Part shown: piece after piece, positions 40,069 through 63,755 of the stretch | How the letters are laid out: every line of letters starts with the position of its first letter | How positions within the stretch are numbered: the first letter of the stretch is position 1 | Assembly (NCBI GenBank): GCA_018830565.1 | Contig: JAHJRX010000043.1 | Location: 9,755 to 73,754 of the forward strand | Direction: 5' to 3' | Length of the DNA: 64,000 nucleotides | Source: a bacterium | GTDB taxonomy: Bacteria; UBA9089; JAHJRX01 | The notes under the pieces: model-generated | What the model saw: only the letters and a program-made list of their open reading frames with translations | What the model was told of the DNA's origin: nothing | The model's database searches: none | Position numbers and translations under genes: made by a program

Positions 40069-40079
40069 AAAAGCCCTCT

Positions 40080-40340: not shown

Positions 40341-41225
40341 TTATTGAGAAGATACTGCATATAATCTTAATATCTCCCTTCTCGCCTCACCAATTGTGAG
40401 TGGGATTCTACCAAATGGAATATTATCCTCATGCTTCAATCTATAAATCAACTCTGCCATTTGAGGCAATCTTAGCCTTACATTCTCCATATCCTCCGGT
40501 GCGGTAAATACATCCTCAGGAGTGCCGCCTCTGACAATATGCCCCTTGCTCAAAATATAAAGCCTGTCAAGGAATAAAGGGACAAGGTCAACTGAGTGTG
40601 TCGCCATAACAATGGTAACGCCATTTTCCTTATTTAACCTTGTCAGGAGATTCATCATTTTATATTCACCCATTGGGTCAAGTCCGGCAGTCGGCTCATC
40701 AAGGAGCAATATCTCGTGTCCCATAGATAAAAGTCCGGCAATACATGCCCGTTTCTTTTGCCCAAAACTAAGATTGTGGATTGATTTTCCTGCATAATCG
40801 TCCATCTCAACAGCCTTTAGTGCCTCCTTAACACGGCTGATAACCTCATCTTCCGCAAACCCCATATTTATTGGTCCAAATGCCACATCCTCAAAGACGC
40901 TTGTAGCAAAGAGCTGGTCATCAGGGTTTTGAAAGACAAGCCCGATTTTTTTATATATCTCCTTTGGCGATAGCTTTTTAATGTTAACACCGTCAAGAAG
41001 GATATTTCCCTCAATATCTTTTAACAGTCCGTCTATTGCCTTTAGCAGGGTTGTTTTCCCTGAGCCGTTTGAGCCGAGAATGCCTGTAAACTCTCCCCTT
41101 TTTATCTCAAGGCTTATGTCAGACAAGGCTATTGTCCCATCCGGATATTTGAACGAGTTTATCTGAACAGACAATCTTCTGACTTCTGACTCCTGACTTC
41201 TGTATTCTGATTTCACATCTTCCAT
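40341..41225 (-). CDS. cbiO: energy-coupling factor transporter ATPase (CbiO/NikO-like)
   Basis: Walker A GSNGSGKTT, signature LSFGQKKR and Walker B LLLDEPTAGLD. The N-terminal ~20 aa (KSEYRSQESEVRRL) are encoded by CTGACTT-type heptamer repeats at 41177-41214. Confidence 0.85.
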   Translation of the reverse strand: MEDVKSEYRSQESEVRRLSVQINSFKYPDGTIALSDISLEIKRGEFTGILGSNGSGKTTLLKAIDGLLKDIEGNILLDGVNIKKLSPKEIYKKIGLVFQNPDDQLFATSVFEDVAFGPINMGFAEDEVISRVKEALKAVEMDDYAGKSIHNLSFGQKKRACIAGLLSMGHEILLLDEPTAGLDPMGEYKMMNLLTRLNKENGVTIVMATHSVDLVPLFLDRLYILSKGHIVRGGTPEDVFTAPEDMENVRLRLPQMAELIYRLKHEDNIPFGRIPLTIGEARREILRLYAVSSQ

Positions 41226-41980
41226 ACAACCCCCACAACAATAACGAACAGGACAGAGAATATAACCTCAACAGTTTTGAAGGGTTTGTGCTTGAGTATC
41301 GGTATGTTACCGTCATAACCCCTTTGAATCATGGCTACTGTGATATGGTGGCTATGGTCAAATGCCTTAAGAATGAGAGAGCCTGTAAGGGTGCCGAATG
41401 AACCCAATCCACACTTTATATTGGAGTATCCAAGTCGATTCTTCTGGGCGTTATAAATAACCATTGCATCCTCAAGGAGAACAAAAATATACCTGTAGGC
41501 AAACATCAATATCTCAATAAATCCTTGCGGAACTCTCATCCAGGAAAGTCCTGCTGCAAACTCCACAAACGGCATAGAAAAGCTCATAAAAACAACAATT
41601 GATACCGCACCCAGAATTCTGCTTGCTATCATTAAGCCCTCTATCAATCCATCGCTATGCCCAAAGATTTTTATGCCCATAATATCCAATGAGAATAACA
41701 CATCGCTTCCAGAGAAAAAGAATTTCAACAAGACTATTATTGAGGCGATAAAGACAGGCTCTAAAAATCTCAGGACAAAGACCCTCAAGGGTATCCGTAT
41801 CCTTATGCAGAGAGCAAGACAAAGGATTGTCATGAATATTGGGAGGACAAATCCCTTATAGCTTAGAACCATGGCAAGAATAGCCAGACTGATCATGATC
41901 TTTATCCTTGCATCGATTTTTGAAAGCAGAGAACGGTTACGACCATTCCCTGCGGTAAAGTATTCTGAAAATATTTCCAT
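41213..41980 (-). CDS. cbiQ: energy-coupling factor transporter transmembrane component (CbiQ/EcfT)
   Basis: ~250 aa, five TM helices. Position upstream of cbiO. Confidence 0.8.
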   Translation of the reverse strand: MEIFSEYFTAGNGRNRSLLSKIDARIKIMISLAILAMVLSYKGFVLPIFMTILCLALCIRIRIPLRVFVLRFLEPVFIASIIVLLKFFFSGSDVLFSLDIMGIKIFGHSDGLIEGLMIASRILGAVSIVVFMSFSMPFVEFAAGLSWMRVPQGFIEILMFAYRYIFVLLEDAMVIYNAQKNRLGYSNIKCGLGSFGTLTGSLILKAFDHSHHITVAMIQRGYDGNIPILKHKPFKTVEVIFSVLFVIVVGVVWKM

Positions 41981-41997
41981 AATCTTTATAGGTAAGT

Positions 41998-42135
41998 ATT
42001 CAGCGGTCAGGTATCAGCACTCAGCCAGAACCAGGAAAATCAAACGCAAAGATGAACTCCACAATTTTACACTTTCTTGCTTTTCTGCTCTAACATCGCT
42101 AAAAATTGATACCTGACCGCTGATAGCTGAACGCT
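41998..42135. repeat. inverted pair of CAGCNNN-periodic repeat units
   Basis: ttcagcggtcaggtatcagcactcagcc ... cctgaccgctgatagctgaacgc. Confidence 0.6.
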
Positions 42136-42138
42136 TAC

Positions 42139-46228
<4,090 letters not shown>

Positions 46229-46257
<29 letters not shown>

Positions 46258-46567
46258 TCTTTAGCTGATATGCAATTCCAAGTCTCGTGCCTTCACCGCT
46301 TAGCTGCGTATCAGTTACCTTTTTCACCTTAATCTCTTTGCCCTTCTTGGTAATTATCTCTATCTGACCGTCAGCGGTCTTTTTGGTAATGGTTACCTCT
46401 GATTTTGGGTCCAGCAGGTCAACCATATCATAAGCCATAAATAAGGCAATCATCATGCTGACAATAAAGACTACGCTGGCGTCGAAAAGATTTGCCACTC
46501 CGGCAATAGGGTCCTCAAGCAGCTGTTCGTATTTTTCAAATCTTTTGTGTCTTTTCAAAAATCTCAT
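46229..46567 (-). CDS. DUF2149-like small membrane protein (ExbD/TolR-like topology)
   Basis: Single N-proximal TM (ANLFDASVVFIVSMMIALFMAY) followed by a soluble domain. Sits directly downstream of the ExbB-like gene. Confidence 0.55.
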
Positions 46568-46596
46568 GCTTAGCTCCTGATTTGTAATAGTTCAGC

Positions 46597-46768
46597 TAAC
46601 CGCAAAGGCGCAGAGACGCAGAGAAAAACTTAAAGTTTATTGGCTATACGCTTAATTCCATTCCTTAAGACAGAAATATTGAAATTGATCAATAGGCTGC
46701 ACCAAGAAAGTCTTTTTCCTGTGTCTGATTAATTTCCATACTCTGTGCCTCTGCGTCTCTGCGGTGAA
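46597..46768. repeat. long-range inverted repeat with CGCAGAG heptamer units
   Basis: ccgcaaaggcgcagagacgcagag ... ctctgtgcctctgcgtctctgcgg, about 120 bp apart. Confidence 0.6.
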
Positions 46769-46771
46769 CCA

Positions 46772-47326
46772 TTACCTTGATTTTACATCTGCATTTCGCA
46801 GCGTCAGCTCTGTAAGATATTCCATCTCCCTCATATCAGCTCTGAGCCATTTTTCTTTTACTATAGACATAAGATATGCGGCCACGCTACAGGCAAGTCC
46901 CACAACAACGGTTGTAAATGCAGTTACCATACTTCCAGCCATTTTAGGCATATCACCCTGTGCCATGGCAGAAAGGGCAATGCCCATAGGTATCAATGTC
47001 CCCATGAGACCAAGGGCAGGTCCAACCCGAATGGCAAATCTAACCCTATCCAATGATTTGACCAAATCAAGCTCTGCTGACTGAAGGAGTCTCTCCAGCT
47101 TGATGTCTAATTCCGCTGCCTTGTCTTTGCACTCACATTCAAGCATCAATTGATACCTGCGTAATGGCAGTGATATACCCTGCACCCTCTCGATATATTC
47201 ACGCAAGAATCCCCCAAACGAAATAACCATCCAGAATGTAAGCAAAGCAATCCCGGCAACCACCGGGTAAAAAAGGACAGAGGAGACGATATACAGATAT
47301 GTCTCAAGTCCCGCAAGAATATTCAT
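46772..47326 (-). CDS. MotA/TolQ/ExbB proton-channel family protein
   Basis: Three TM helices with conserved ...GPALGLMGTLIPMG... TM2/TM3 region. Confidence 0.85.
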   Translation of the reverse strand: MNILAGLETYLYIVSSVLFYPVVAGIALLTFWMVISFGGFLREYIERVQGISLPLRRYQLMLECECKDKAAELDIKLERLLQSAELDLVKSLDRVRFAIRVGPALGLMGTLIPMGIALSAMAQGDMPKMAGSMVTAFTTVVVGLACSVAAYLMSIVKEKWLRADMREMEYLTELTLRNADVKSR

Positions 47327-48024
47327 TGTTTAATCCCCCCTTGTGTTCTCTTTGCGAAAAACCCAATCAGCATTGCTGAAAAAAGCAGAGCAAATACCCC
47401 AATACTATTATTCAAATCAATATTGTTTGTCCCTGTTAGAAACGATCCGTATATCCCCTTTGCCTCTTCAATCTTTGGCGGTAGAACCAGTGTTGCAAGA
47501 AAATAAAGACCTATGCCTATCATACTCAGTCCAATGTTCACATTTGAATTACTGATGCAATTCATCCTTATCATGATAATGATAAGAAGGGTTAAAACAA
47601 CAAAGGATGTGCCAATGCACAATCCCACAACTGGTGCAGGGAGTTTAATCACATTTAATGCTGCCCATGTAGAAAAGGTTATAGCAGCAACGCAAACAGG
47701 GCAGGGAATCCACAGAAATATTGCAGAGTATTTAGAGCAATGCTTGTGCTTTGTATTGTGCAGTAGATATATCCCCCATATCATCAATCCTGTTGCCATC
47801 AGCATGTGAAGGTATGGACCCTTTCTTAACACAGGCTCAAACAACTGGAACAGGCGACCTGAAAATGTCGCGATAAGTACAAAGGCAGCAAGATAACACA
47901 AGAGAATCAAGACTATGCCTTTTTTCCTTAGCCCTCCAAACCCAAGCCCAAAGCCAACCTTAACAGCAAATATGCTTAAGGTAAAGAGCATTCCGCCAAT
48001 CCATAGAATAATGCTTAAATCCAT
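47323..48024 (-). CDS. polytopic membrane protein (DUF2162-like?)
   Basis: Six or seven hydrophobic helices. Translationally coupled to the exbB-like gene. DUF assignment is from memory of archaeal cobN neighbourhoods and is low confidence. Confidence 0.35.
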   Translation of the reverse strand: MDLSIILWIGGMLFTLSIFAVKVGFGLGFGGLRKKGIVLILLCYLAAFVLIATFSGRLFQLFEPVLRKGPYLHMLMATGLMIWGIYLLHNTKHKHCSKYSAIFLWIPCPVCVAAITFSTWAALNVIKLPAPVVGLCIGTSFVVLTLLIIIMIRMNCISNSNVNIGLSMIGIGLYFLATLVLPPKIEEAKGIYGSFLTGTNNIDLNNSIGVFALLFSAMLIGFFAKRTQGGIKQ

Positions 48025-48028
48025 GTTA

Positions 48029-48847
48029 TTATCCCTCTAACCTAAAGGCTATATTTACCCTTAGACTCAACTCCTCTCTCTTTAGTCCCTCTGGAATACA
48101 CAAAAATGGGCTTGCCTTCTTTACGCTCATGACAGCCTCATCATCCAGAATTTTGCAGCCTGATGAAGCGGCTATCTCAACATTCTTTAATCTTCCATCA
48201 TTAGAAATACAAAATTGAACCCTTACCACCCCTTCAATCTCTTTTCTTCTTGCAACCTGAGGGTATTTTTTATTTCTTTCTATCTTTGCCTTAACCTTAA
48301 CTGTATATTCCTGCAGCAAATTATCTTTAATAATCCCCTCTTGAGAGGGGTGGCTGCGAAGCAGACGGGGTGTGTTATCCCCTATAATCCGGGATTGTAA
48401 TGGTTCAATGCCCTGAAATTCTTCTGCACAGGGCATACCCTGAACAGCACAGCTTTCTGTAGGGCTCGGTCCCTGACCGAGCCTATTTTCTTCTACTGCC
48501 TGAGTTTCAGCCGCACATGTGAGTACATGAGGTGTATCAAGTAAGGTTTTAGACAGTACTTGTGGATCCAGCATCTCATTTGTCACAGCAGGACTTGAGG
48601 TTTCGGTCAATGTCTGTGGTATCTCCTTCGGCATAGGAGCTGCCTCTGTTTTATGTAATGCCTGCGTTCTATGCAGCTGGACATCTTTAGCATCAGCTTG
48701 CATGCCCTTATCGTCCAAATTTTCTAGTAGTGAAACCATTATCAATCTCTCGGTATTCTTTTGCACCTGATCAGGATTACTGAAAATATTTCCCATCGTA
48801 AAAAAAATGATGTGCAATAAAGCAGAGATGATGAGACTACGATTCAT
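48029..48847 (-). CDS. TonB-family energy transducer
   Basis: N-terminal TM, Pro-rich linker and a C-terminal TonB_C-like domain (KYPQVARRKEIEGVVRVQFCISNDGRLKNVEI). Confidence 0.7.
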   Translation of the reverse strand: MNRSLIISALLHIIFFTMGNIFSNPDQVQKNTERLIMVSLLENLDDKGMQADAKDVQLHRTQALHKTEAAPMPKEIPQTLTETSSPAVTNEMLDPQVLSKTLLDTPHVLTCAAETQAVEENRLGQGPSPTESCAVQGMPCAEEFQGIEPLQSRIIGDNTPRLLRSHPSQEGIIKDNLLQEYTVKVKAKIERNKKYPQVARRKEIEGVVRVQFCISNDGRLKNVEIAASSGCKILDDEAVMSVKKASPFLCIPEGLKREELSLRVNIAFRLEG

Positions 48848-48885
48848 CTTTTCCTTTTCCTTCTTGCTGCAATAATGCTACTCCT

Positions 48886-48955
48886 TCGGGGTTGCTTATT
48901 TTTTCCTTCCATCTTCTGTATTTAATCCCGAAGGAGTAGCATTATTATAGCATTC
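48886..48955. repeat. palindromic element AATAATGCTACTCCTTCGGGGTT / AATCCCGAAGGAGTAGCATTATT
   Basis: Perfect 23-bp arms. Related copies at 53160-53230 and 60098-60125. Confidence 0.65.
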
Positions 48956-49096
48956 ATTAATTAATCAACTATAATTATTTTATCTGTTGGTGCTGCTTCC
49001 CATGCAACACAAGATTTGTTTATACCCATAAAACCGAAAACTATCAATATATGGATTAGGGCAGATATTAGAATAGATACCTGAATGCCTGAGTAG

Positions 49097-49942
49097 TTAC
49101 TCATAATTCATAATTCCCTTCACCATTACCTGTAATGTTTGGAGGATCTCACTATACTCAACATTCACCTCTACCTCATACGCCTCCAGGAGATTTTTGG
49201 GGGTAAGTACTTGTTGAGAAATACCATCACACAGAATCCTGTGATTATGCAATAAGATGAGCCTGTCGCAGAATCTTGCGGCTAAATTCAAATCATGAAT
49301 AACCATGACTGTGGTAATTCCATGTTCACGAACTAATGTCTTCACCAGCCCAAGTACCCTCATCTGGTGTTTTATATCTAAGTTTGCCGTTGGTTCATCC
49401 AGCATAAGTATCTTGGGTTCCTGAGCAAGTGCCCTGGCAATGATTACAGCCTGCCGCTCACCACCACTTAACTCATTTATTTGTCGATGTCGAAAGCCAA
49501 TGGTATCGGTTTTTCTCATTGCCTCTTCACACACCGCTAAATCTTGTTTGGTGACACCAAACCTATTTTCTTGATGGGCATATCTACCCATTAACACTAC
49601 ATCCTCAACCGTAAACAGGGGTGGAATGAATATGCTTTGCGGCACCACAGCCATAATTTTGGCAATCTCTTTTCGGGAAAGGCTGCTTATATCTTTGTCA
49701 TCCAACATAATCTTTCCGTTTAATGCACGCTTTACACCGGTCATTACCTTAAGCAAGGTAGTTTTACCCGCACCATTTGGACCGATAATGCCTAAGAATT
49801 CTCCCTCAGAAACATGGAAGTTAATCCCTTCAAGCACGGAAAATTCACTATAGGATGCTTTTATGTTTTCTAACCTGATCATTTTACCACCAACTAACTG
49901 ATTTTTTCCTTCGCCGTAATAGATACACAAAATATGGTGCAC
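49097..49942 (-). CDS. ABC transporter ATP-binding protein, iron/corrinoid (FecE/BtuD) type
   Basis: Walker A GPNGAGKTT, LSGGERQ and ILMLDEPTANLD. Confidence 0.9.
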   Translation of the reverse strand: MHHILCIYYGEGKNQLVGGKMIRLENIKASYSEFSVLEGINFHVSEGEFLGIIGPNGAGKTTLLKVMTGVKRALNGKIMLDDKDISSLSRKEIAKIMAVVPQSIFIPPLFTVEDVVLMGRYAHQENRFGVTKQDLAVCEEAMRKTDTIGFRHRQINELSGGERQAVIIARALAQEPKILMLDEPTANLDIKHQMRVLGLVKTLVREHGITTVMVIHDLNLAARFCDRLILLHNHRILCDGISQQVLTPKNLLEAYEVEVNVEYSEILQTLQVMVKGIMNYE

Positions 49943-52488: not shown

Positions 52489-52603
52489 AATTTTATTCCT
52501 TTAATTAAAATTAATTAAAATTTCTCTTGACAAAAAGTATTATTTGATATATACTTTATATAGAATTACGATGAGAGGGCACACCTAAGGTTTCGTCCGA
52601 AGG

Positions 52604-53110: not shown

Positions 53111-53159
53111 TTAACACCTCCCTCCACAATAGCAATCTCTTCTTCGGTCAAGCCATAAA

Positions 53160-53230
53160 AGCTATAATAATGCCACCCCGTTGGGGTTGTGGTTTGCTTG
53201 TTAAACCCCGAAGGGGTGACATTATTGTAG
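53160..53230. repeat. palindromic element (same family as 48886-48955) immediately upstream of the NYN gene
   Basis: tataataatgccaccccgttggggttg ... aaccccgaaggggtgacattattgtag. Confidence 0.6.
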
Positions 53231-54142: not shown

Positions 54143-54144
54143 TT

Positions 54145-56112
54145 CTACAGTACCCCCTTGATACCTGCGACAATCTGTTCACGATTCAAATCCTCAAGCT
54201 CTAAATATTTTGCACCCATTGCCTCTGCTATCTCCAATGCCTTACTAAGACTAAGAAAGCCTTTTTCCGTATTAATCACTAAGGATCTTATCCCTGCCTC
54301 TTTTATCCTCAAGGCAATATCCTTTGCCTCTTCTATGGGCGATTTTGTCTTGTCTGTTCCTGCATTTGCCCTGCCATCTGTCAAAACTACCAGCAGGGGA
54401 TAACAATTTGTATCCCTTTTCTTCTCCTGCATTAACACCTCATACCCTCGTAACAATCCTTGTGGAAGCGGTGTTTTTCCGCCGGTTGGCAATTCCTTGA
54501 GCTTATCCTTTGCCATCTCTACACTCGATGTAGGTGGAAGTAGAAGTTCAGCCTGATTACCCTTAAAAGCTACCAGCCCTACCTTATCCCTTTTTTGATA
54601 GGCATCGATCAACAATGAAAGTATGGCACCCTTAGTTTCAACCATCCTTTGATTTGCACCCATAGAACCTGATGCATCAACCACAAACAGGATGGTATTA
54701 CCTATCTTTTTCTTTCTCACCTTTTGGCGAATATCCTCTTGCCTTATATTCAGGGCAACCCCATTTTTATCCCGATGTGCCTGATATGGTGATGCAGCCC
54801 TAAGGGTAGCATCAAAAGCCAGATCAGTGCATTTACCATCAGGCAGGGTGCTTCTTACATACCTGCCTGATTTAGAATCCGTGCAGGTGGTGCTTCGTCT
54901 GCCGGATGATGACCGAACATTACGATCCTGAGGCAGGATTATCCTCTGAACATTGTATGGTTCGCCTACCTCAAAATGTGTCTCTGTAGAGGCATCAGAG
55001 GATTGTCTTTCTGTCTGTTCATCCGATGGCGATTGGTCTTTTTTTTCCTGTTCCTGTTGTTGCTGCTGTTCTGTCTGTTGTTGTTGCTGCTTATGCTTAT
55101 TCATGGTTTCCTGTAGTTTTTCTGTATCCATCTTCTGTTCCTGAAACGGCTTTCTTCGCATACGGTGTGGCAGTACCAATTCTGCTGCCTCCTTCACATC
55201 ATCCTCAGTCACCTGTGTTCTGGAATGATACGCAGTCAATGTCTCTGCTGTTTTCATCATCACAATATCTGCCCGATGCCCGTCAACACCCATATCAACA
55301 GCAATTTGGGCAATCAAATTCAGCAGCTCATCAGCTATAGCCACCCTCTTCAACAACTCTTTTGCCTTTACTATTGTCTCTGAAAGTCGTTTTTCCTCTG
55401 CCTTCCATTCATGATAAAAGGAATGCGGATCCTGTTCATATCTTGCCCTGCGTTTGATAATCTCAACCCGCAGAGCAGTCTCCTTCACCCCCTCAATATC
55501 CACACACAACCCAAATCGGTCAACAATCTGGGGTCTTAGCTCACCCTCCTCAGGGTTCATGGTACCAACCAGCATAAAATGTGCCGGATGTGAAAACGAG
55601 ACACCTTCCCGTTCTACTATATTTACGCCCATAGCCGCAGAATCCAATAGAACATCCACCAGATGGTCATCCAACAGATTAACCTCATCAATATAGAGTA
55701 TTCCCCGATTAGCCGAAGCCAACACACCCGGTTCAAAGTGTTTTTCCCCTTTCTTGATTGCCTTCTCAATATCAAGGGTACCCACCACCCGGTCCTCGGT
55801 AGCCGATACCGGCAGATTAACCACCTTCATCTTCCGCTTGATAACCAATAAATCTTTATTCTGCCGGCAGCTTTCACACATCAGATGCACATCCCCTGGA
55901 CTGCAGCCAAAAGGGCAGTCTTCTACCACCTCAATCTCTGGCAGCAGATTGGCTAATGCCCTCACAGCAGTGGACTTAGCCGTCCCCTTCTCACCGCGGA
56001 TAAGCACACCGCCAATCCGTGGATTAATGGCTACCAATATAAGTGCCAGCTTCATCTTATCCTGACCAACTAATCCGGTAAATGGATAGACAGTATCTGC
56101 AAAACAACTCAT
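54145..56112 (-). CDS. Mg-chelatase-type ChlI/ChlD fusion protein (AAA+ ATPase + poly-Q/acidic linker + vWA/MIDAS)
   Basis: N-terminal [15 protein letters not shown] Walker A and ChlI-like AAA module. [15 protein letters not shown] linker. C-terminal vWA domain with MIDAS (DASGSM). Confidence 0.9.
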
Positions 56113-56118
56113 GTTATT

Positions 56119-59100
56119 TTATCCTCCCCATTTTGCCTTAATCTCCTGCATCTTAGCCCCCCAGTCAGCCACATCCTCGGCAGTCAGAATATCTATTGAG
56201 CCGCCCTGAAAGTCACCGGTTACATCGCCCATTTTTTCTTCAATCCAGCCCTCAATCTCAAGATATGCGTCCTTGAGTCCGGCTAAGACATCCGGATCAG
56301 CATCCCACAGACCACGCTGGTGGGCTTCCAACAGCCGGCGGCCGATTTCTTCTAATGCCCAGGGGTTATTTTCCTCAAAGAATTTTTTGTTCTCCTCATT
56401 CAGGACAAAGGTGCTGGTAATGTCATCGAATATCCAGTCATCTACCTCTTGAGTAGTTGCCTCCCAGCCATAAACCCTGCCAATGCGTTTGGATATATCA
56501 CCAGCCCCTTTGTAGCCATGTTGTTTCATCCCCTCAATCCATTTTGGATTGAGTAGTTTTGTTCGGACAACTCGTCTGACTTCATCTGCCATATCCCGAA
56601 CCTCAATATGCTCTGGCTCACGGGTATCACCATAGTATGTCCTGACCTCTTTACCGGATAGATGTCTTGCCGCAGCAGTCATCCCTCCATGTGTACCAAA
56701 GTAACCGCAGCAGCCAAACAAATCGTACTCATCGCTGACTACCTTATTGTAAGTTATATCTACACTCTTCAGATTATCAGCCAATTGTTTGTGTTTCTCC
56801 TCCCCAAATATCCCTTTACCGTAGGCATAGCCATTCCAATAAACAAAGACATCGGACAAGTCCTTTTCCTCCTTCCATGCTGAGGCATAGACGGCAAGTT
56901 GCGTTCCTGCCTGATATGTCCCGGGCTTTGAGGCAAAGACGCGAAGGGTGGCATTTCGCCAGGCATCTTTGTTTTCTTCGCTCTCTCCTGCCTCTGCTAT
57001 TTGAGCCAATGAATGCTTCCGCACAAAGTTCATCCGGGCCGGCTCCGGCAGGGAGGCCACGGCCTGAATAGCCTCATCAACAAGCTCCATACAGTTAGGG
57101 AAGTTGTCCCTGGTAATGCCTGAAACACGGATAGTAACATCTATTCGTGGTCTGCCCAATTCCTCAAGTGGAATAATATCAAATCCCTTTACCCTACCGT
57201 TTGGCTGCCAGAGAGGCTTTACCCCCAGGAGGTAAAATATTTGTGCCATGCCCTCGCCATCAGCCCACATAATATCCGAGCACTGCCAATAGATAGCAAC
57301 ATTCTCAGGGATTTTACCTTCTTCCTGCTTATGTTTTTTAATCACTGCATCAGCCAATTTCTGCCCTATCTGCCAGGCTGCCTTTGTTGGAATCCGATGA
57401 GGGTCAAGCGAATAAAAATTCCTGCCTGTTGGCAGAATATCATCCCTTCCGCGGGTAATCAACCCTGATGGACCAGGCAGGATATAGCCGCCGTCAAACC
57501 CATGCAGCAACGACTCAATCTCCTGAGATTCATCAATCCGCTTGTTCAAATCAACCAACCTTTCCTTGATTACCACAAGCGAGTCTATATATTCCACCTT
57601 CTTCAGCCTCTCACCAAGTATATCCTTAGCGAGCCTGTCCATGTCTTTTTCATCGATTGTCATCCTGCGGATAAATTCCCTGCAAAGGGTATTAATTTCC
57701 TCTAATAACTCCCCGTAAGCTTGATGGTGATGCGGACAAACCTTGCCGCTGTCTGCCAGCATATCAGACAGATTCATACCCATCATCCCGGCAACTATCT
57801 TTCGCAGCGAAACCTTTTCACCGGTGTCGTATCGCAAAATGGAGTTGATGAAGTCTAACCGCTTCTCACCTTCCGGCAACTGACCAAAGATATGCATCCC
57901 ATCCTGAATCTGGGTATTTCTGATTTTAGACAGGATACCATGGGTTGCCTGAACTATTTCACCAAAAGGTAATGAATGAACCTCTGAATCACCTAATTCG
58001 GCAAGCGATAATTTTTTAAATTCGCAATTCGCAATTCGCAATTCGCAATTAACTTTTATCTCTTTGTCCAGATTGGTCTTCTGGATGGCATCCATAATCA
58101 GATGCTGCAAGGCATGAGCCCGTCCATGGTCAATGTCCTTCAACTGTTCATACTCCCCCAAGAACCTGCCGAGCTCCTCCAACTCCTCATAAAGCCCGCC
58201 TTGGGTCATCACCGTTTGCATGTGGTCAACCAGGGTGGCATAGCTGCGACGCTTAGCAATGGTGCCCTCCGGGGGGTTATCCGCATTGTAGATGTAAAGG
58301 TGCGGGATGTCGCCAATCCCAATGTCCGGATAGCAATCACCAGACAGGGCAGTGCCTTTGCCGGGCAAGAATTCCAGGTTGCCGTGTGTGCCGACATGGA
58401 CAATCGCATCTACACCAAAATCGTATTCCAGATAACGATAAGTCGCCATATATTGATGTGGTGGAGGAATATCCGGATCATGTAGGATTTTGCAGACCTG
58501 TCCATCGCATCTTGCCCCGGCACAGCCACGCTTTGGCTGAACACAGACAACCGTATTCCCATACGCTACACCTGTAACTAATATTCGTCCATCGTAAACC
58601 ATAGCCGGCGGCACACCATTTACCTCCTCACCCGGTGGATTTCCCCATGCATCACACATCCGCTGCCTGACCATTGGTGAAAGGGTATTAAACCATTCCT
58701 CGTATTCCTCTTTGGTTACCTGCTTCAGCACACCACCCTTTTTGACTATCTCATCCGTAGTTGTCCAGCGAAACTCACTGATTGCCTTGCGGTCCATAAT
58801 CGTGGTGATAAGCTCCTTGCCGTCAGTTGGCGGCTCGACGGCATATCCCGCCTCTTTCATGCGATGCATTATTCGGGCAACACTTTCCAGGGTATCCAGA
58901 TGAGCACCCCCTCCTACCGTGGCTTCTACTGAGGCACAAGGGTTGTTGTTCAGGATAAAAGCCACCTTACGCTCGGCGACTGGCTTTTGTCGAAGCTTTA
59001 CCCAGTTAGCAATCCGGCGGACAACCTTACGGCACCGCTCCTCGATCGGCATCCGCTGTTGCAAGCCGCCCTTTTCATCACTTAAGCCACCAATGATAAA

Positions 59101-60081
59101 AGGCTCAATTACCCCCTCAAACTCAGGCATAGCAATACTCCAACCAACGCTGGTGCCTAATCCATGGGAGTCATTCTGCCACTCATCTATGGTTTTGTAA
59201 TAAGAGGTTATGGGTGAGAACACCGGCACATCAAGCCTTTTTAGTATCTCCACCCCACTGGAAGCAACCTCCTTGTCGTCAAAATCTTTCCCCTGTGTAT
59301 TACCTATGAAGAAATTCTGGAGCTTGATAAGGGCATCAATTCGTGGTGTTCCATCCTCACGCAGGAAATATTCACAAACCACCTCACCGCTCCCCTTGCA
59401 GCCTTGTTCTTCATTCTTGACTGAGTACGAAAATGCCGGGATGACATTCAAACCCAATGCCTCTAATTCACGAATAAGGGCATCTTCAACCTCAAGATTG
59501 TTATTTACCCAGTAGTGGCGGGAAAAAAGGATACCGACAGTAGGAATTTTGGATTGCGAATTGCGAATTGCGGATTTATGAAGATGATACCAATTCAGGT
59601 ATTCCTCAATAGTGCCAAAGATTGATGGGGCATCCGGGTGATACAGCCCTTCCCATGGCACATGTTTTGGCTCTGCCGCCGATAGATCAAGCCCAACAAC
59701 CTCATGGGCAATATATTTCAGCATATTGGTGAAATTTTCCTCACCACCAATTATTATATAGGAATAAGTTTTGGCAGCAACCTCCGGTTTAACGGTAGAA
59801 AGCATCCAGTAGGACGGGTCATATCCAATACAGACAATAGGAATCTTTTTGCCTATCTCCTGTAGCTTTGCCTCAATCGTCTCCCAAAAACCCTCGCTTG
59901 AGCGATAGAGAAGAATGGCATCAGCCTTCGCTGCCTCCTCAAGCACTGCCTCAAGAATATCCGGCTCATCAGCAAGTTTTTTGGCAGAATAAGCCTTAAG
60001 CTCAACTGATTCGGCAACATTTTTGCTTGCCTTGACAAGCATATTTAGATGGCTGTGCCACATAATAGCGACTATTCGCAT
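56119..60081 (-). CDS. cobN: cobaltochelatase CobN-family large subunit, paralog 2 (canonical, no signal peptide)
   Basis: 1320 aa with CobN blocks throughout. Partnered with the ChlI/ChlD gene immediately downstream. Contains two in-frame AATTGCG heptamer insertions (58021-58049 encoding NCELRIANCEF; 59557-59580 encoding SAIRNSQS). Confidence 0.9.
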   Translation of the reverse strand: MRIVAIMWHSHLNMLVKASKNVAESVELKAYSAKKLADEPDILEAVLEEAAKADAILLYRSSEGFWETIEAKLQEIGKKIPIVCIGYDPSYWMLSTVKPEVAAKTYSYIIIGGEENFTNMLKYIAHEVVGLDLSAAEPKHVPWEGLYHPDAPSIFGTIEEYLNWYHLHKSAIRNSQSKIPTVGILFSRHYWVNNNLEVEDALIRELEALGLNVIPAFSYSVKNEEQGCKGSGEVVCEYFLREDGTPRIDALIKLQNFFIGNTQGKDFDDKEVASSGVEILKRLDVPVFSPITSYYKTIDEWQNDSHGLGTSVGWSIAMPEFEGVIEPFIIGGLSDEKGGLQQRMPIEERCRKVVRRIANWVKLRQKPVAERKVAFILNNNPCASVEATVGGGAHLDTLESVARIMHRMKEAGYAVEPPTDGKELITTIMDRKAISEFRWTTTDEIVKKGGVLKQVTKEEYEEWFNTLSPMVRQRMCDAWGNPPGEEVNGVPPAMVYDGRILVTGVAYGNTVVCVQPKRGCAGARCDGQVCKILHDPDIPPPHQYMATYRYLEYDFGVDAIVHVGTHGNLEFLPGKGTALSGDCYPDIGIGDIPHLYIYNADNPPEGTIAKRRSYATLVDHMQTVMTQGGLYEELEELGRFLGEYEQLKDIDHGRAHALQHLIMDAIQKTNLDKEIKVNCELRIANCEFKKLSLAELGDSEVHSLPFGEIVQATHGILSKIRNTQIQDGMHIFGQLPEGEKRLDFINSILRYDTGEKVSLRKIVAGMMGMNLSDMLADSGKVCPHHHQAYGELLEEINTLCREFIRRMTIDEKDMDRLAKDILGERLKKVEYIDSLVVIKERLVDLNKRIDESQEIESLLHGFDGGYILPGPSGLITRGRDDILPTGRNFYSLDPHRIPTKAAWQIGQKLADAVIKKHKQEEGKIPENVAIYWQCSDIMWADGEGMAQIFYLLGVKPLWQPNGRVKGFDIIPLEELGRPRIDVTIRVSGITRDNFPNCMELVDEAIQAVASLPEPARMNFVRKHSLAQIAEAGESEENKDAWRNATLRVFASKPGTYQAGTQLAVYASAWKEEKDLSDVFVYWNGYAYGKGIFGEEKHKQLADNLKSVDITYNKVVSDEYDLFGCCGYFGTHGGMTAAARHLSGKEVRTYYGDTREPEHIEVRDMADEVRRVVRTKLLNPKWIEGMKQHGYKGAGDISKRIGRVYGWEATTQEVDDWIFDDITSTFVLNEENKKFFEENNPWALEEIGRRLLEAHQRGLWDADPDVLAGLKDAYLEIEGWIEEKMGDVTGDFQGGSIDILTAEDVADWGAKMQEIKAKWGG

Positions 60082-60187
60082 AAAAATACCTCCCTCTATA
60101 ATAATGCCGCCTTGTTGGGGTTACAGGGATACTATCCCCCTTGTCTTCCTGCATTCACAGGGGCAGGCTCTGTCCGTGAAGGCAAGC

Positions 60188-60220
60188 AGACTTCCGAAGT
60201 TTTCAAAACTTCGGAAGTCT
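60188..60220 (-). terminator. perfect 16-bp palindrome downstream of the TonB-dependent receptor gene
   Basis: agacttccgaagtttt/caaaacttcggaagtct. Confidence 0.45.
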
Positions 60221-60248
60221 AAGCGTTTTCCCTCACAAGGGGATACAA

Positions 60249-62489
60249 TTAATATTTACATTTTACCTCAAAAGTAACCGTCCTCCTGGGTGCCTTGTAG
60301 TACTGGTAATACTCTTTGTCAAGGAGATTATCCACAGCCAGCGACAGTCCTATATTTCCCCTCAAGGCATATCCAATTCGGACATCCACTGTGTCCACCG
60401 TATCATACGCCCCATACACACCCTTTACCACATCGATATTATCAGAAGCAGCGTACATCTCCTTTACCCAGTGCCATGTGCAAGAGGCATCTAAGGCATT
60501 TCTATGAAAAGAAACCCCGAGATTATACATCTTTTCAGGCACATACTCAAAATCCTTTCCAACTGTTTTGGGTTCTGCTGGATTTGAGGTAATCTCTGTA
60601 TCCTGCAATGTATAATTAGCAAAGGCATCTAACCCGGCAGCCAGTTTCATCTTACCCTCCATTTCAAACCCGGCTATCTGTCCACGACCTGCATTCTCCC
60701 GGATAGAATATGTCTCGGTAACCCATTTGTTATAAATAAGGTCATCTATCTTACTCTGAAAATATGTTGCGGAAATAGCTATTTTACTTAAGTGCTGGTC
60801 AATACCTATCTCCCAGCTTTGTGTGGTTTCGCAAGAAAGCTCAGGATTACCCACATAAGTTTTACTGCCGGATTTCCATGTTCTATACAATTCATAGATT
60901 GTTGGTGGTCTAAATGCCTTGCCCCATGAGGCACGAATACCATCCAACTTGTATAATCCTTTCTCAAATTCCGGCTTGTAGAGGAGACCTACCTTAGGAG
61001 AAAATGCCTGCTTTTCTTTATCTTCATATATCGTTGATTTGGTGCCATCAATCAACGAGGCATCGTAGTTTTTCCATGTATCGTATCGTGCGCCCAGGAA
61101 TAGTTTCAGGGCATTAATCAGTTGAACCTCACCCTGAGTATAGAAGGCAATGGTTCTTGCCTTTCCTCCTACCTCATAGGTCGGATTACCTGTGCCTATG
61201 GACGACTCATCCTTCCAGTTACTAACCTTCCAATCCTTAGCTCTGGCAGAATCATCCCTGTAGGTCAGACCACAGGTGATGAGATTGGTCTCCATTAACG
61301 GAATGTCGAGCTGCACCTCACCAAAAAGGGTATCCCTTGGAGAGGTCTTGGACAATTTTCCTGAACCCCCAGAATAATTTGCTCCGGTTTCCGGGCTTAC
61401 ATAGAAACTATTGGAATCACTAAAATTGAGCCGCCCTTTTAAGGCAATCTCTCCGAGCAAGGTATCATAACACAATCCATAGGTATTATCTTCCAATTCT
61501 CCCCATGTGCCTAAGAAATCCTTCGGAGAAAGCGTCATCGTTCCTTCACCCGGCAACTCAACCTTACCACTATCAACAGGTTTTCCGCTTCCATCCACAA
61601 GATTACTTTGTGGGTCACGATACCCATATTCCCGACTGTTTCCTTTATACGAAAAGGAAAGATTGGATGCCGGGTTCAGGGAATAAAAAAGCCTGAAACC
61701 ATATTGATCTTGGTCCCAGTAGTTTTTGCCCTTATCCCCAAGCAAATAGGTAGTGTTGCCCTTGTTATCCGTTGTCTTTGTCCAACCCGTAACCTGAGCA
61801 GCTGAAGTGCCTGGGGTTACAGATTTAGTCACCAAATCCGTTCTATCTCCCTTACTTATTTTCTTCTCAAGGTTAACGGAAAAGGATAGTTTGCCGATCT
61901 TATTTCCATAGCTTAGGATGTGGCGATAAGTATTGTAAGCAGAGGCAGAGCTTTTGACCTCAAAGCCCTCCTTTTTAGGTATTTTGGTGATAACATTTAT
62001 GACACCACCCATTGCCTCTCCGCCGTAAAGGCTTGAAGATGGACCCTTGACCACCTCTATCTTTTCTATATCTCCAATTGGTAAGTTGCTCAAATATGTT
62101 CCACCGTTATAGGCATCATTTAGCGGCATTCCATCAAGCAGCACCAAAGTCCTCTGTTCCCCGCTAAACCCACGAAGCGTAGCCCTGCTCCTTGTATCTG
62201 CAAATTTGGTTCGTTTCTGCACTACCCCTGGCTCATACTTGAGTGCCTCATCCACAAATGTAACCCTTTTCTTCTCCATCTCATCCCTTGTTATTACTGA
62301 GGCACTTACAGGCAGATCACTAATCTTCTGTTCAATCTTTGTTGCGGTAACCACAACCTCCTCTAATTCAATCACCCCTGTTGAGGCAGCACCTCTGGCA
62401 ACTGTCCCTTGTTGTCCTGCAAAACCAATCCCAGACAAGATAGTAACCAAACTCATCCCAAAGCCCATCCTTAACCAAAATCTTTTCAT
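60249..62489 (-). CDS. TonB-dependent outer-membrane receptor (BtuB/CirA-like)
   Basis: Signal peptide, TonB box (EEVVVTAT), plug domain and a 22-strand barrel pattern. Confidence 0.9.
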   Translation of the reverse strand: MKRFWLRMGFGMSLVTILSGIGFAGQQGTVARGAASTGVIELEEVVVTATKIEQKISDLPVSASVITRDEMEKKRVTFVDEALKYEPGVVQKRTKFADTRSRATLRGFSGEQRTLVLLDGMPLNDAYNGGTYLSNLPIGDIEKIEVVKGPSSSLYGGEAMGGVINVITKIPKKEGFEVKSSASAYNTYRHILSYGNKIGKLSFSVNLEKKISKGDRTDLVTKSVTPGTSAAQVTGWTKTTDNKGNTTYLLGDKGKNYWDQDQYGFRLFYSLNPASNLSFSYKGNSREYGYRDPQSNLVDGSGKPVDSGKVELPGEGTMTLSPKDFLGTWGELEDNTYGLCYDTLLGEIALKGRLNFSDSNSFYVSPETGANYSGGSGKLSKTSPRDTLFGEVQLDIPLMETNLITCGLTYRDDSARAKDWKVSNWKDESSIGTGNPTYEVGGKARTIAFYTQGEVQLINALKLFLGARYDTWKNYDASLIDGTKSTIYEDKEKQAFSPKVGLLYKPEFEKGLYKLDGIRASWGKAFRPPTIYELYRTWKSGSKTYVGNPELSCETTQSWEIGIDQHLSKIAISATYFQSKIDDLIYNKWVTETYSIRENAGRGQIAGFEMEGKMKLAAGLDAFANYTLQDTEITSNPAEPKTVGKDFEYVPEKMYNLGVSFHRNALDASCTWHWVKEMYAASDNIDVVKGVYGAYDTVDTVDVRIGYALRGNIGLSLAVDNLLDKEYYQYYKAPRRTVTFEVKCKY

Positions 62490-62524
62490 TCTTACACGTC
62501 CTCCTTTGTGTTACGATTTTAGAA

Positions 62525-62553
62525 ATTATAGCACAAGATGTGAATTGTGTCAA
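62525..62553 (-). promoter_or_regulatory. canonical sigma70 promoter (TTGACA-17 bp-TATAAT) for the TonB-dependent receptor gene
   Basis: Minus-strand ttgacacaattcacatcttgtgctataat, then ~30 nt, AAGGAGG and ATG. Confidence 0.7.
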
Positions 62554-62565
62554 GTAAAATTTCGA

Positions 62566-62595
62566 GTAAGGGCAACCGCAGGGGGTTGTCCTTAC
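62566..62595 (-). terminator. hairpin downstream of cbiMN
   Basis: gtaagggcaacc-gcaggg-ggttgtccttac, one mismatch. A U-rich tract on the minus strand is weak. Confidence 0.4.
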
Positions 62596-62612
62596 AATTC
62601 ACGGAGGGATTG

Positions 62613-63755
62613 TTACAGATGCTCCTTTCCGGCTTTATTTGGTTTTTCAGCAATAAGTATCCTCCAGCAGTATCCACCAATAAATCCTCCAACCGTACCT
62701 GCAAGGAGAAAGACAAAAAGGAGCAGGTCGCCTTGATCGGTATTAATAATTGGCTGCCTTGCCTCTCTGCCATGCTCTGCGGCGTATTTTTCAACAACCG
62801 ATTCATCAACCCCGCTCCATTTAGATTCTTTTGCAAATGCAGGGGTAGAAAATAACAAGGACAGAAGGGTTAAGAGGATTAACAAGGGTGTGGTTATGTT
62901 CTGACTTCTGTATTCTGTCTTCTGTCTTCCATCTTCTGTCTTCTGACTTCTGTCTCCTATATTCTGACTCCTATATTCTGACTTCTGAATTCTGACTTCC
63001 ATTTTCACTACCCCCAATTTCATAAGCATATCCGGCCTCTTTTTGTAAAGCAGCACAATCATGCCTGCTGTCATAGCCCCCTCAAGGATTCCCAATGGAA
63101 GCTGTGTTGGGATGAAGGCAATGAGTATCTTCCAGAAAAGCGGTAAGAATGGTGAATCCCCCCTTATGCCTGAGGCAAGTTCAATGGATGTAGTGGTATA
63201 TGTTGCCCAATCTGCAAGCAGTCCTGCCGCAAAGCCTGCAATCCAGAGGTTAGCCTTTAACGCCCTCAATCCCTTGAAGGTTAAATATCCTGCAAATGAG
63301 CCCATCACACCCATGGAGACAATATCCGCACCCCAGGTACTCAAACCACCGTGAGCAAGGAAGAGGGCTTGAATAAGAAGAGCCGCGGCTGAGACAAGTA
63401 TGCTGACATAAGGGCCAAGTAATATCCCTGATATGCCTGTCCCGCACGGATGGGAACATGTGCCTGCAGTCGGTACTGGTATGGGCATACAAGAGATAAT
63501 GAAAACCACTGCGGCCATTAATCCTATGAGTGGCTTGAACGATAGGTCAACACTTGAGAGTTTCTTCACCTTGTACAACCCAAATGCCACAAATGGCATG
63601 GCAATAGCAAGCCAGAAAACTGCCCAATTGAGCGGCAGTATCCCCTCTGAGATGTGCATGGCATGGGCATTGTTCCTAATCAATAAAAACCCAATGGTTA
63701 AGAGCAATCCTGCAAACAATCTGTCTCTCATCTTAATGTTTCGTTTATTTTGCAT
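62613..63755 (-). CDS. cbiMN: CbiM-CbiN fusion (ECF-type Co/Ni uptake substrate component); MHISEG follows a predicted signal peptide
   Basis: CbiM core (AHA|MHISEGILP..., ~220 aa, seven TM helices). A 35-aa low-complexity linker (EYRSQNIGDRSQKTEDGRQKTEYRSQNI) is encoded entirely by CTGACTT/CTGTCTT heptamer repeats. A C-terminal CbiN-like two-TM module follows. Confidence 0.8.
   Translation of the reverse strand: MQNKRNIKMRDRLFAGLLLTIGFLLIRNNAHAMHISEGILPLNWAVFWLAIAMPFVAFGLYKVKKLSSVDLSFKPLIGLMAAVVFIISCMPIPVPTAGTCSHPCGTGISGILLGPYVSILVSAAALLIQALFLAHGGLSTWGADIVSMGVMGSFAGYLTFKGLRALKANLWIAGFAAGLLADWATYTTTSIELASGIRGDSPFLPLFWKILIAFIPTQLPLGILEGAMTAGMIVLLYKKRPDMLMKLGVVKMEVRIQKSEYRSQNIGDRSQKTEDGRQKTEYRSQNITTPLLILLTLLSLLFSTPAFAKESKWSGVDESVVEKYAAEHGREARQPIINTDQGDLLLFVFLLAGTVGGFIGGYCWRILIAEKPNKAGKEHL
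62899..63000. repeat. heptamer tandem array inside the cbiMN ORF (encodes the inter-domain linker)
   Basis: ttctgacttctgtattctgtcttctgtcttccatcttctgtcttctgacttctgtctcctatattctgactcc... Confidence 0.75.

Follow-up and report, generated by a model that had tools for sequence, protein, structure and literature searches.

Why should a protein of the cobaltochelatase family be exported and anchored in the cell envelope, beside a TonB-linked transport module, in a region that also encodes a conventional cytoplasmic CobN? The question is raised by a stretch of 64,000 nt from contig JAHJRX010000043.1 (positions 9,755 to 73,754 of the forward strand; assembly GCA_018830565.1; GTDB lineage Bacteria; UBA9089; JAHJRX01), which we call the window, and in particular by its CobN-like gene at 42139-46257. 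This gene lies in a block of 24 genes (33629-63755), all 24 of them co-directional on the minus strand in the list of open reading frames (ORFs). An earlier note on this DNA had read the block as a pathway that imports a tetrapyrrole, either corrinoid or heme, and inserts or removes its metal. We find that the CobN-like protein belongs to a strongly conserved module that is under B12 control in its clade. We propose, at what we judge to be about an even chance, that the block is a B12-repressed island for cobalt and corrinoid supply, in which an envelope module resembling the Hmu heme system would scavenge across the outer membrane and periplasm. Import of a metal tetrapyrrole followed by handling of its metal fits all of our findings and the precedent of HmuS (PMC12583661); the heme option recedes, as the cobalamin riboswitches described below point to corrinoid or cobalt instead.

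Profile searches of the window ORFs with Pfam and NCBIfam, judged against curated cut-offs, recovered the genes that the earlier note had named, in their places and on the minus strand, among them a canonical cytoplasmic CobN with its ChlI/ChlD-type partner (Table 1). The anchored CobN-like protein stays below all nine NCBIfam CobN and BchH cut-offs (best, NF004645, 955 bits against 1619). It shares 28-31% identity with the cytoplasmic CobN encoded 8 kb away, and 60-72% with orthologues from other phyla (Nitrospirota, Desantisbacteria, Desulfobacterota, Planctomycetota and others). These identities, together with the separate clades of the two proteins, rule out tandem duplication and agree with the earlier description of a divergent paralogue.

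The N-terminus of the CobN-like protein has a basic stretch followed by a hydrophobic segment ending in AHA, and its C-terminus has a hydrophobic helix followed by the basic tail RRRKIKN. By hydropathy, hydrophobic termini recur in the orthologues at the N-terminal end in 65 of 70 and at the C-terminal end in 63 of 70; the cytoplasmic CobN has neither. The protein is thus predicted to be exported, periplasmic and held by a C-terminal membrane helix, which bears out the anchor proposed earlier and adds to it a signal-type segment at the other end. The ORF encodes 1372 residues, and the public gene call starts at Met66 (locus L004 position 10506, window position 46062) and gives 1307. We prefer the long form because N-terminal hydrophobic segments are conserved in the orthologues; the orthologue in L001, a relative 94% identical to the window, is annotated in the long form with a signal-type N-terminus.

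The best match of the protein among solved structures is HmuS (PDB 9d26, E = 8.5e-148), with CobN structures close behind. In CobN, H554, E593 and D1100 have been proposed to bind Co(II) (bioRxiv 10.64898/2026.07.21.739949), and by alignment the window protein keeps their counterparts in the motifs GTHG, VGEG and LDNDD. The family at large comprises 1384 clusters at 50% identity that match at E<=1e-30. We compared 131 full-length sequences from among the 150 closest representative clusters, along with named comparators, and placed them in a distance tree: hydrophobic termini are present in nearly all, and the subfamilies differ at the second metal-site position. The clade of the window protein, which groups with the CobN-like protein of plasmid pSZ77, conserves GTHGTHEW and LDNDD, both of which the window protein has, and its aligned domain IV insertion is about 100 residues long with 1 Met. 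The HmuS clade, which includes the HmuS proteins of Bacteroides finegoldii and Aureibacter, has GTHGSLEF and LSLDHV and an insertion of 186-519 residues with 6-18 Met. Other subfamilies carry TSDDP, NHHV and further variants, with insertions of varied kind.

We used DUF2149, which is about 80% identical across phyla, as a handle to collect related loci and annotated these by BLASTP with the window proteins. The sample comprises 80 loci from genomes of different species and one Trichlorobacter metagenome locus (L002), 81 in total. The association of these genes is not due to chance, as the cluster's core is found again in 80 further species-level loci. The conserved order is TonB-dependent receptor (TBDR), DUF2162, MotA/ExbB, DUF2149 and CobN-like: MotA/ExbB adjoins DUF2149 in 71 of 71 loci, the CobN-like gene follows downstream in 75 of 76, DUF2162 is present in 53 of 68 (it is missing from a betaproteobacterial variant), and a same-strand TBDR lies directly upstream of the module in 54 of 60. 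The tie between the anchored paralogue and the exbB and DUF2149 genes, which had been suspected from this one locus, therefore extends throughout the sample. The window has DUF2162, MotA/ExbB, DUF2149 and CobN-like in this order at 48024-42139, with a 29-nt overlap between DUF2149 and the start of the CobN-like gene; its receptor gene belongs to this co-directional block too, but at a distance of 11 kb upstream, with nine genes in between. The clade is found in anaerobes (Nitrospirota, Desulfobacterota, Syntrophia, anammox Planctomycetota and Verrucomicrobiota) and in some Betaproteobacteria. One metagenomic locus (L094, 648-12038) has two CobN-like proteins, of 1336 and 1345 residues, flanking a single TBDR-MotA-DUF2149 set.

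The neighbours of the module are more varied. Among the 81 loci they include CbiZ in 18, Cbi energy-coupling factor (ECF) genes in 15, corrin biosynthesis genes in 12, BtuFCD-type genes in 10, TonB in 9, CbiK in 8, and canonical CobN with ChlID in a single one (L034). The core module is thus strongly conserved and the full arrangement of the window is rare; the supercluster is not conserved as a whole, as the earlier note would have had it.

Control by B12 sets this clade apart. Rfam scans of 14 close loci found cobalamin riboswitches in 11, in 10 of these directly upstream of the module receptor and often in tandem; a canonical hmu operon and four loci of the sister clades yielded none. Control of this kind is specific to the clade of the window protein. 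Tandem cobalamin riboswitches precede the module receptor in L002, L021, L023, L034 and L088. Riboswitches of L034 lie at 5144-5331 and 8317-8504, and this locus has a further one between the receptor gene and DUF2162.

In the window itself, Rfam reported no cobalamin riboswitch, either at the gathering score or in a permissive scan of 33000-64000, because the element runs past the end of the window. We read beyond this end with contig ena:ERZ27247117:k141_336465 (L086), which is identical (100%) to the window over 11143 nt. The full adenosylcobalamin (AdoCbl) riboswitch corresponds to 64057-63925 in window numbering and to 9699-9831 of L086, scores 55.3 bits with RF01482 against a gathering score of 50, and lies about 170 nt upstream of cbiM, with its last 76 nt inside the window. 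A hairpin with a 14-bp stem and a T-run, in the gap between aptamer and cbiM, is probably the expression platform. The permissive scan gave no cobalamin riboswitch before the TBDR or tonB genes of the window.

How the module might be energised is suggested by the genes between the receptor and the CobN-like gene. TonB and the MotA/ExbB-family protein, two members of the ExbB-ExbD-TonB set that the earlier note had called complete, were recovered (PF03544, PF01618). The third was not: the putative ExbD gives no PF02472 match, only PF09919 (DUF2149) even at E<=10, and hhalign against a bona fide ExbD finds nothing. DUF2149 resembles ExbD in having one N-terminal helix, an Asp in that helix (the invariant Asp29) and a MotA/ExbB neighbour; a small beta-rich periplasmic domain follows, and an AlphaFold2 model (pLDDT 55) is too poor for fold comparison. 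A gap of 4 nt separates the end of tonB from the DUF2162 gene, and the TonB protein has an S-x3-H motif (SALLH) in its N-terminal helix, so that TonB-MotA-DUF2149 is a plausible energiser of the receptor in the window.

DUF2162, a gene overlooked in the earlier list, sits between tonB and motA/exbB and encodes a polytopic inner-membrane protein with an invariant P-C-P-x-C (C108, C111) and His73, a set of ligands that would suit a soft metal ion. The same slot is filled by unrelated polytopic proteins elsewhere. In Hmu operons it holds HmuT, which has no Pfam family and gives no hhalign match with DUF2162. On the Runella slithyformis plasmid pRUNSL01 (L089, 5028-13062), a sister-clade module with a CobN-like protein of 39% identity consists of TBDR, a NicO/DsbD_2-like protein in the DUF2162 slot, MotA, DUF2149 and CobN-like, and is flanked by hypA-hypB-hypF on one side and hypC-hypD-hypE on the other, with a NiFe hydrogenase alongside, which hints, from gene context, at a version of the machine that may serve nickel. 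Because three unrelated polytopic proteins fill this one slot in iron (HmuT), cobalt/B12 (DUF2162) and nickel (NicO-like) contexts, the slot suggests an inner-membrane carrier for whatever the machine releases.

Under the reading that we prefer, the window from about 33.6 to 64.06 kb would be one horizontally acquired island headed by the AdoCbl riboswitch, and its genes would be expressed when AdoCbl is scarce. The receptor, energised via TonB and the MotA/DUF2149 channel, would deliver a corrinoid, or some other complex of cobalt, to the periplasm. There the CobN-like protein would act on the bond between metal and macrocycle, most simply, by analogy with HmuS, by releasing Co(II) from corrinoids that are not directly usable. 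Co(II) might then enter via CbiM(N)QO, DUF2162 or both, and intact corrinoids would enter through the BtuFCD-type importer; in the cytoplasm, CobN-ChlID would insert cobalt into the ring made de novo by the CobF, CobI, CobM and CobJ enzymes of the island. What the analysis shows are the gene identities, the predicted topology, the conservation of the module, its riboswitch control and the placement in a subfamily; the substrate, the direction of the reaction (removal of metal) and the partner driven by the MotA/DUF2149 channel are the parts of this scheme that we infer.

Several points weigh against this scheme. Cobalt is held very tightly in corrin, and we know of no enzyme that removes it. 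The clade itself is known from sequence alone. To our knowledge Bacteroides fragilis does not synthesise the corrin ring, and free cobalt would therefore be useless for B12 there; a riboswitch-linked Hmu-like operon has been described in this organism (PMC10100974). The specificities of the receptor and binding protein are not readable from comparison with NCBIfam and PDB entries, the scans gave no riboswitch in the stretches covered of three betaproteobacterial loci, and the window receptor lacks a riboswitch of its own, has its own consensus promoter and stands 11 kb from the rest of the module. The nickel and hydrogenase-maturation context of the Runella module, finally, fits the handling of metal ions without any tetrapyrrole.

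The genes around the module are listed in Table 1, with the other elements of the block.

Table 1. Genes and sequence elements of the block in window coordinates, with the profile match or other basis of each assignment (scores in bits; second values are cut-offs)
Feature	Position	Strand	Basis
AdoCbl riboswitch aptamer, 3' part	63925-64000	minus	RF01482
Terminator-like hairpin, 14-bp stem then T-run, in aptamer-cbiM gap	63882-63914	minus	
CbiM, ECF cobalt S component, with C-terminal extension	62613-63755	minus	PF01891 177; NF006184 256 vs 180
Sigma-70 consensus promoter-like site upstream of TBDR gene, TTGACA-17-TGnTATAAT	62525-62553	minus	12/12 positions match
TonB-dependent receptor, Plug and barrel	60249-62489	minus	Pfam domains
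CobN, cytoplasmic class I cobaltochelatase large subunit	56119-60081	minus	NF004646 2055 vs 1468
ChlI/ChlD-type AAA+/VWA fusion, motor subunit for CobN	54145-56112	minus	TIGR02442 854 vs 779
BtuF/FhuD-type periplasmic binding protein (Peripla_BP_2)	53222-54142	minus	PF01497 110
NYN-domain gene	52604-53110	minus	PF01936
ABC-2 ATPase	51655-52488	minus	DrrA/NodI-like, below cut-offs
ABC-2 permease	50918-51658	minus	DrrA/NodI-like, below cut-offs
BtuC/FecCD permease	49884-50921	minus	PF01032 327
BtuD/FecE-type ATPase	49097-49942	minus	best NCBIfam, corrinoid ABC ATPase, 263 vs 537
TonB	48029-48847	minus	PF03544 66
DUF2162 polytopic inner-membrane protein	47323-48024	minus	194
MotA/TolQ/ExbB-family proton-channel protein	46772-47326	minus	PF01618 39
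DUF2149	46229-46567	minus	PF09919 109
Exported CobN-like protein (predicted), C-terminal anchor helix	42139-46257	minus	PF02514 1051
CbiQ, ECF T component	41213-41980	minus	PF02361 127
CbiO, ECF A component	40341-41225	minus	PF00005
AAA_14/DUF4143 gene	38884-40068	minus	Pfam/NCBIfam
CobF (precorrin-6A synthase)	38126-38887	minus	TIGR02434 314 vs 196
CbiE-CobI fusion	36627-38162	minus	Pfam/NCBIfam
CobM/CbiF	35678-36442	minus	Pfam/NCBIfam
CbiG-like	34941-35681	minus	below cut-offs
CobJ/CbiH	34210-35031	minus	Pfam/NCBIfam
CobA/BtuR adenosyltransferase	33629-34153	minus	Pfam/NCBIfam
Palindromic element, ~90 nt, ATPase/tonB gap	48859-48957		repeat families D5, I6, I8
Palindromic element, related copy, btuF/NYN gap	53155-53231		repeat families D5, I6, I8
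Palindromic element, related copy, TBDR/cobN gap	60096-60122		repeat families D5, I6, I8
Tandem repeats of 7-nt period	36512-36541, 40241-40340, 41176-41214, 42360-42428, 46117-46223, 58019-58050, 59544-59577, 62899-62999		

The ECF importer of the window is confirmed by profile for CbiM, CbiQ and CbiO. The CbiN half of the CbiMN-QO system named earlier did not hold up in the same way: the C-terminal 131 residues of CbiM give no Pfam match and no BLASTP match against a Geobacteraceae CbiN, and nothing but their two-helix topology fits. CbiM has a signal-type N-terminus (AHA, then MHISEG), and the linker to its extension of two helices is encoded by heptamer repeats. Among the transport proteins, the TBDR stays below all NCBIfam cut-offs (hemin family 200 against 317, B12 family 182 against 600) and its PDB matches are generic. 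The FecCD permease comes nearest to BtuC (341 against 461), and the binding protein lies nearest to generic, heme or B12 families, also below cut-off.

The genes for the cytoplasmic chelatase, cobN and chlID, are 6 nt apart. This CobN and its L034 orthologue have LFGCCGYF (residues ~1117-1130) in place of the Asp-Asp seen in CobN structures and in the periplasmic paralogue, which implies, from the alignment, a Cys-Cys variant of the putative metal site in the CobN type that is partnered with ChlID. The CobF match above cut-off points to a probable late-cobalt-insertion route, and neither CbiK nor CbiX was found in the island. The pathway signature is mixed, with CobF next to a CbiG-like gene and CobN-ChlID, without CbiK or CbiX.

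The block is set off from its surroundings by composition. G+C content steps from 0.31-0.36 to 0.43-0.48 precisely from the start of cbiM to the end of cobA and drops again on either side, so that the cluster is a compositionally foreign island, about 30.4 kb of 43-48% GC in a chromosome of 32% GC. Housekeeping genes flank it (RF-1, Rho, ArgRS, DnaX, signal recognition particle RNA and TrmE), and no tRNA gene that could have served as an integration site was found at either border. In L001 the gene order is kept and the downstream flank is different. A long GC-rich nested palindrome lies at the island edge, just beyond the window (L086 ~9440-9640).

Could such an island be a mosaic, in which the ECF importer, BtuFCD, CobN-ChlID and the receptor module were gathered by rearrangement in one lineage and are coupled only by a B12 theme? 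We consider this a serious, if doubtful, possibility. Canonical CobN-ChlID stands beside the module in only one of the 81 loci, cbiM is separated from cbiQO by 20 kb, and genes of other kinds (NYN, AAA_14/DUF4143 and the ABC-2 pair) are interspersed. The gaps tell a similar story, with an internal consensus promoter, hairpins and repeats. A gathering of this kind is harder to square with 24 co-directional genes behind a single riboswitch in a compositionally uniform island, with the order retained in L001 next to a different flank, and with the fact that each unit serves cobalt or B12 supply. A mosaic origin is in any case compatible with our preferred reading as far as the core module is concerned.

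The elements in the gaps deserve description. The strong TBDR promoter that the earlier note had proposed matches the sigma-70 consensus in all positions; across the region, the total of promoter-like matches is no higher than chance. Hairpins and repeat elements occupy several gaps between genes of the cluster, and together with the promoter they leave it undecidable from the letters whether the island forms one transcript. The palindromic element of about 90 nt, with arms of the form ...TATAATAATGC..CCCCG..GGGGTT, might act as a terminator or a site of processing, or might be a MITE; its copy in the ATPase/tonB gap gives hairpin-type Rfam noise matches on both strands.

Tandem arrays of 7-nt period, whose units include ATTGCGA, CTGCCGA, GACTCCT and TTCTGTC, are confined to the GC-rich island; the low-GC flank, 33 kb in all, has none. 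Several arrays are in-frame coding sequence, at the N-terminus of CbiO, in the CbiM linker and at both ends of the CobN-like protein, where they also encode the hydrophobic core of the signal segment; the sequence IANCELRIANCEF in the cytoplasmic CobN is likewise encoded by heptamer repeats. Inverted heptamer arrays surround AT-rich cores in the gaps motA/DUF2149 (46568-46771, 204 nt), CobN-like/cbiQ (41981-42138) and cbiO/DUF4143 (40069-40340). The motA and DUF2149 genes overlap in most other taxa; the gap found here is shared by L001 and L004 and looks like a lineage-specific insertion.

Two further genes stand in a block otherwise devoted to cobalt and B12, the NYN gene and the AAA_14/DUF4143 ATPase gene. 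The NYN gene is at the same place in L004 and L086, which are the same contig (L001 ends before that position), and is probably unrelated to the cobalt/corrinoid system. The DUF4143 gene is retained in L001.

If the module does belong with cobalt supply, the cargo might still be the bare ion. In such an ion relay, no tetrapyrrole would be involved: the receptor would take up ionic or weakly complexed Co(II), or Ni(II) in relatives, and the CobN-like protein would serve as a high-affinity metal acceptor or chaperone that hands the ion to DUF2162, CbiM(N)QO or a NicO-like permease. Much of what we describe for the polytopic slot speaks for this, with three unrelated proteins in one slot in different clades, an invariant Cys-x-x-Cys and His in DUF2162, and a Runella module whose NicO/DsbD_2-like permease lies among hyp genes next to a NiFe hydrogenase. 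Cbi ECF genes also adjoin the module in 15 of 81 loci, and in the window cbiM and cbiQO bracket it from 20 kb apart; CobN binds two Co(II) at the site retained here (bioRxiv 10.64898/2026.07.21.739949), and a cobalt-specific receptor of the outer membrane still awaits confirmation (PMC7689651). We nevertheless think it unlikely, though worth keeping in view. A six-domain chelatase architecture of about 1300 residues, kept at 60-72% identity, seems excessive for a metal carrier, and CbiZ, an exported corrinoid enzyme, belongs to the module in 18 of 81 loci. The nickel context, for its part, is confined to one locus, as the Runella protein's two nearest relatives show none.

A bolder form of our preferred scheme gives the channel to the chelatase homologue. 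MotA/ExbB-DUF2149 would be no generic energiser of TonB but a dedicated proton-motive-force motor for the periplasmic CobN-like protein, in place of the ATP-driven ChlI/ChlD (CobS/CobT) of cytoplasmic class I chelatases; in the B12-regulated clade the machine would strip cobalt from imported corrinoids and feed CbiMNQO or DUF2162, and its sister clades would treat iron (Hmu) and, possibly, nickel (Runella) likewise. Several findings leave room for it: the triad of MotA, DUF2149 and CobN-like is invariant in all clades sampled, DUF2149 and the CobN-like gene overlap, pSZ77 has a separate exbB-exbD-tonB, and TonB lies nearby in only 9 of 81 loci. One locus (L093) has the triad without an adjoining receptor. 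We regard this form as speculative and unlikely as a whole. If it were true, the CobN-like machine would count as the first dechelatase for cobalt and as a means of taking cobalt from the cofactors of other organisms, and exported CbiZ, where present, would trim corrinoids before the cobalt is stripped.

CbiZ, an adenosylcobinamide amidohydrolase, bears on another alternative. By eye, the CbiZ proteins of the module have signal-peptide-like N-termini in L002 (14066-15028) and in L018, L019, L027, L028, L036, L041, L043, L048, L063, L064, L080 and L083, and in L042 (5675-7723) a BtuF-like domain with a signal peptide precedes CbiZ in one fused protein. Judged by these N-termini, exported CbiZ suggests that corrinoid chemistry, presumably trimming, may take place in the periplasm. 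The CobN-like protein could then be a periplasmic corrinoid receiver or scaffold that presents cobamides or cobinamide to exported CbiZ and passes them to BtuF/BtuCD or DUF2162, with no removal of metal. The substrate of CobN is a corrin without a nucleotide loop, roughly the product of CbiZ, which counts in favour of such salvage. The scheme would also work in organisms unable to make the ring, and it accords with riboswitch control that resembles that of btuB and with the presence, in or beside the module, of BtuFCD genes and of CbiZ with export signals. What passive binding leaves unexplained is the tight and universal coupling to a proton channel; the catalytic-site residues, moreover, are retained and highly conserved, and the closest characterised relative removes metal (PMC12583661). 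We therefore hold salvage alone to be rather improbable.

That the module is an ordinary HmuS system taking iron from heme, its place in a B12 island being incidental, is very improbable: the best structural match, the shared topology, the same MotA/DUF2149 partners and the impaired growth of a B. fragilis BtuS1/BtuS2 double mutant on heme as sole iron source (PMC6460266) speak for it, and it is opposed by the loss of the Met-rich insertion and of His-254, by DD in place of DH(1209) (PMC12583661), by the lack of HmuY in the window, by cobalamin riboswitch control that is absent from a canonical hmu operon, and by a separate clade at ~29-30% identity to HmuS.

Clusters of CobN-like and TonB genes linked to B12 have already been described, in 2012 and 2023 (PMC3403914, PMC10100974) and, to judge from the citation in PMC6460266, in 2003. 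The window is therefore little new in kind; what it offers is an unusually complete and compact arrangement, with a CobN system for the periplasm, another for the cytoplasm and two importers of the inner membrane behind one riboswitch. The passage of cobalt through the outer membrane is an open question, a 2021 review having found no confirmed cobalt-specific receptor (PMC7689651). The family of periplasmic CobN-like proteins is large, yet a function is known for the heme branch, HmuS, only, and the clade of the window protein, widespread in anaerobes and directly controlled by B12, is an obvious next target in the search for cobalt acquisition or corrinoid recycling where free cobalt is scarce.

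How does the module compare with known systems? TonB-ExbB-ExbD-driven metal uptake, as in the FrpB4 nickel system of H. pylori and in predicted cobalt receptors regulated by B12 riboswitches (PMC7689651), shares with it a TBDR, TonB, a MotA/ExbB protein and control that responds to metal or cofactor; the window differs in having DUF2149 in the ExbD position and a giant periplasmic chelatase homologue as an obligatory partner. Class I CobN with CobST or ChlID, the cobaltochelatase of the aerobic pathway to B12 with late insertion, shares the six-domain PF02514 architecture and, by alignment, the His, Glu and Asp of the proposed Co(II) site. The CobN-like protein, in contrast, is predicted to be exported and anchored, would thus have no access to ATP or to an AAA+ motor, and is always paired with MotA/DUF2149 instead.

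The closest described relative is on plasmid pSZ77 of the cultured Trichlorobacter (Geobacter) lovleyi SZ (Glov_3667-3675), whose CobN-like protein has 60.8% identity to ours over 96% of the protein. Its order, TBDR, DUF2162, MotA, DUF2149 and CobN-like (Glov_3667-3671), is that of the conserved module, and B12 synthesis genes are near. Two riboswitches precede the module TBDR and a third lies upstream of the cbiMNQO genes, whereas in the window the riboswitch heads cbiM, not the receptor, and cbiM and cbiQO bracket the module. On the plasmid a canonical exbB-exbD-tonB follows the CobN-like gene directly, and then a second TBDR; in the window cobN-chlID, the btuFCD-type genes and tonB have pushed the receptor 11 kb upstream. 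The cobN-exbB-exbD-tonB cluster of pSZ77 was described in 2012 with its 'exact biochemical role unknown' (PMC3403914). B12-regulated CobN-like proteins had been set apart from CobN and ChlH as 'BtuS' in 2003 by Rodionov et al., as cited in PMC6460266, and the clade of the window protein is of this type; a paper of 2023 noted cobalamin riboswitches on Hmu-like operons (PMC10100974).

The Hmu system offers the functional precedent. HmuS is a membrane-bound heme dechelatase with transmembrane helices at both ends that faces the periplasm and, in vitro, converts heme to protoporphyrin IX and Fe(II) in an NADH-dependent reaction; HmuT, HmuU and HmuV are uncharacterised (PMC12583661, PMC13227078), and most other members of the superfamily cannot yet be annotated, according to the 2025 HmuS paper (PMC12583661). 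In the B. finegoldii operon hmuYRSTUV, HmuU belongs to MotA_ExbB and HmuV to DUF2149. The earlier note had set the window apart from the Porphyromonas hmu locus, but the two have the same architecture, that of HmuR/U/V/S: a TBDR, MotA/ExbB, DUF2149 and a CobN-family protein of ~1300-1450 residues with helices at both ends, to which each adds a polytopic protein. The differences lie elsewhere. HmuY is found only in Hmu, the order is S-T-U-V there and T-U-V-S here, DUF2162 is not detectably related to HmuT, and the neighbours are heme and iron genes there and cobalt and B12 genes here, with a riboswitch. Within the ~29-30% identity that separates HmuS from the window protein, the Met-rich domain IV insertion is missing from the latter (the PDB alignment skips HmuS residues ~690-890) and, of the two heme ligands at the head/neck interface, His-254 is matched by Leu (GMSLKIG) and Met-79 by Met126 in a region poorly conserved within the clade. 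At the cation site, His-538 has its equivalent in GTHG, and the position of His-1209 is Asp (LDNDD against LSLDHV), as in the 'SDD' of CobN. Judged by these features, the CobN-like protein stands outside the HmuS family but is predicted to work in the same kind of machine as HmuS, and the module to be the cobalamin-regulated counterpart, in a sister subfamily, of the HmuR/T/U/V/S heme system of Bacteroidota.

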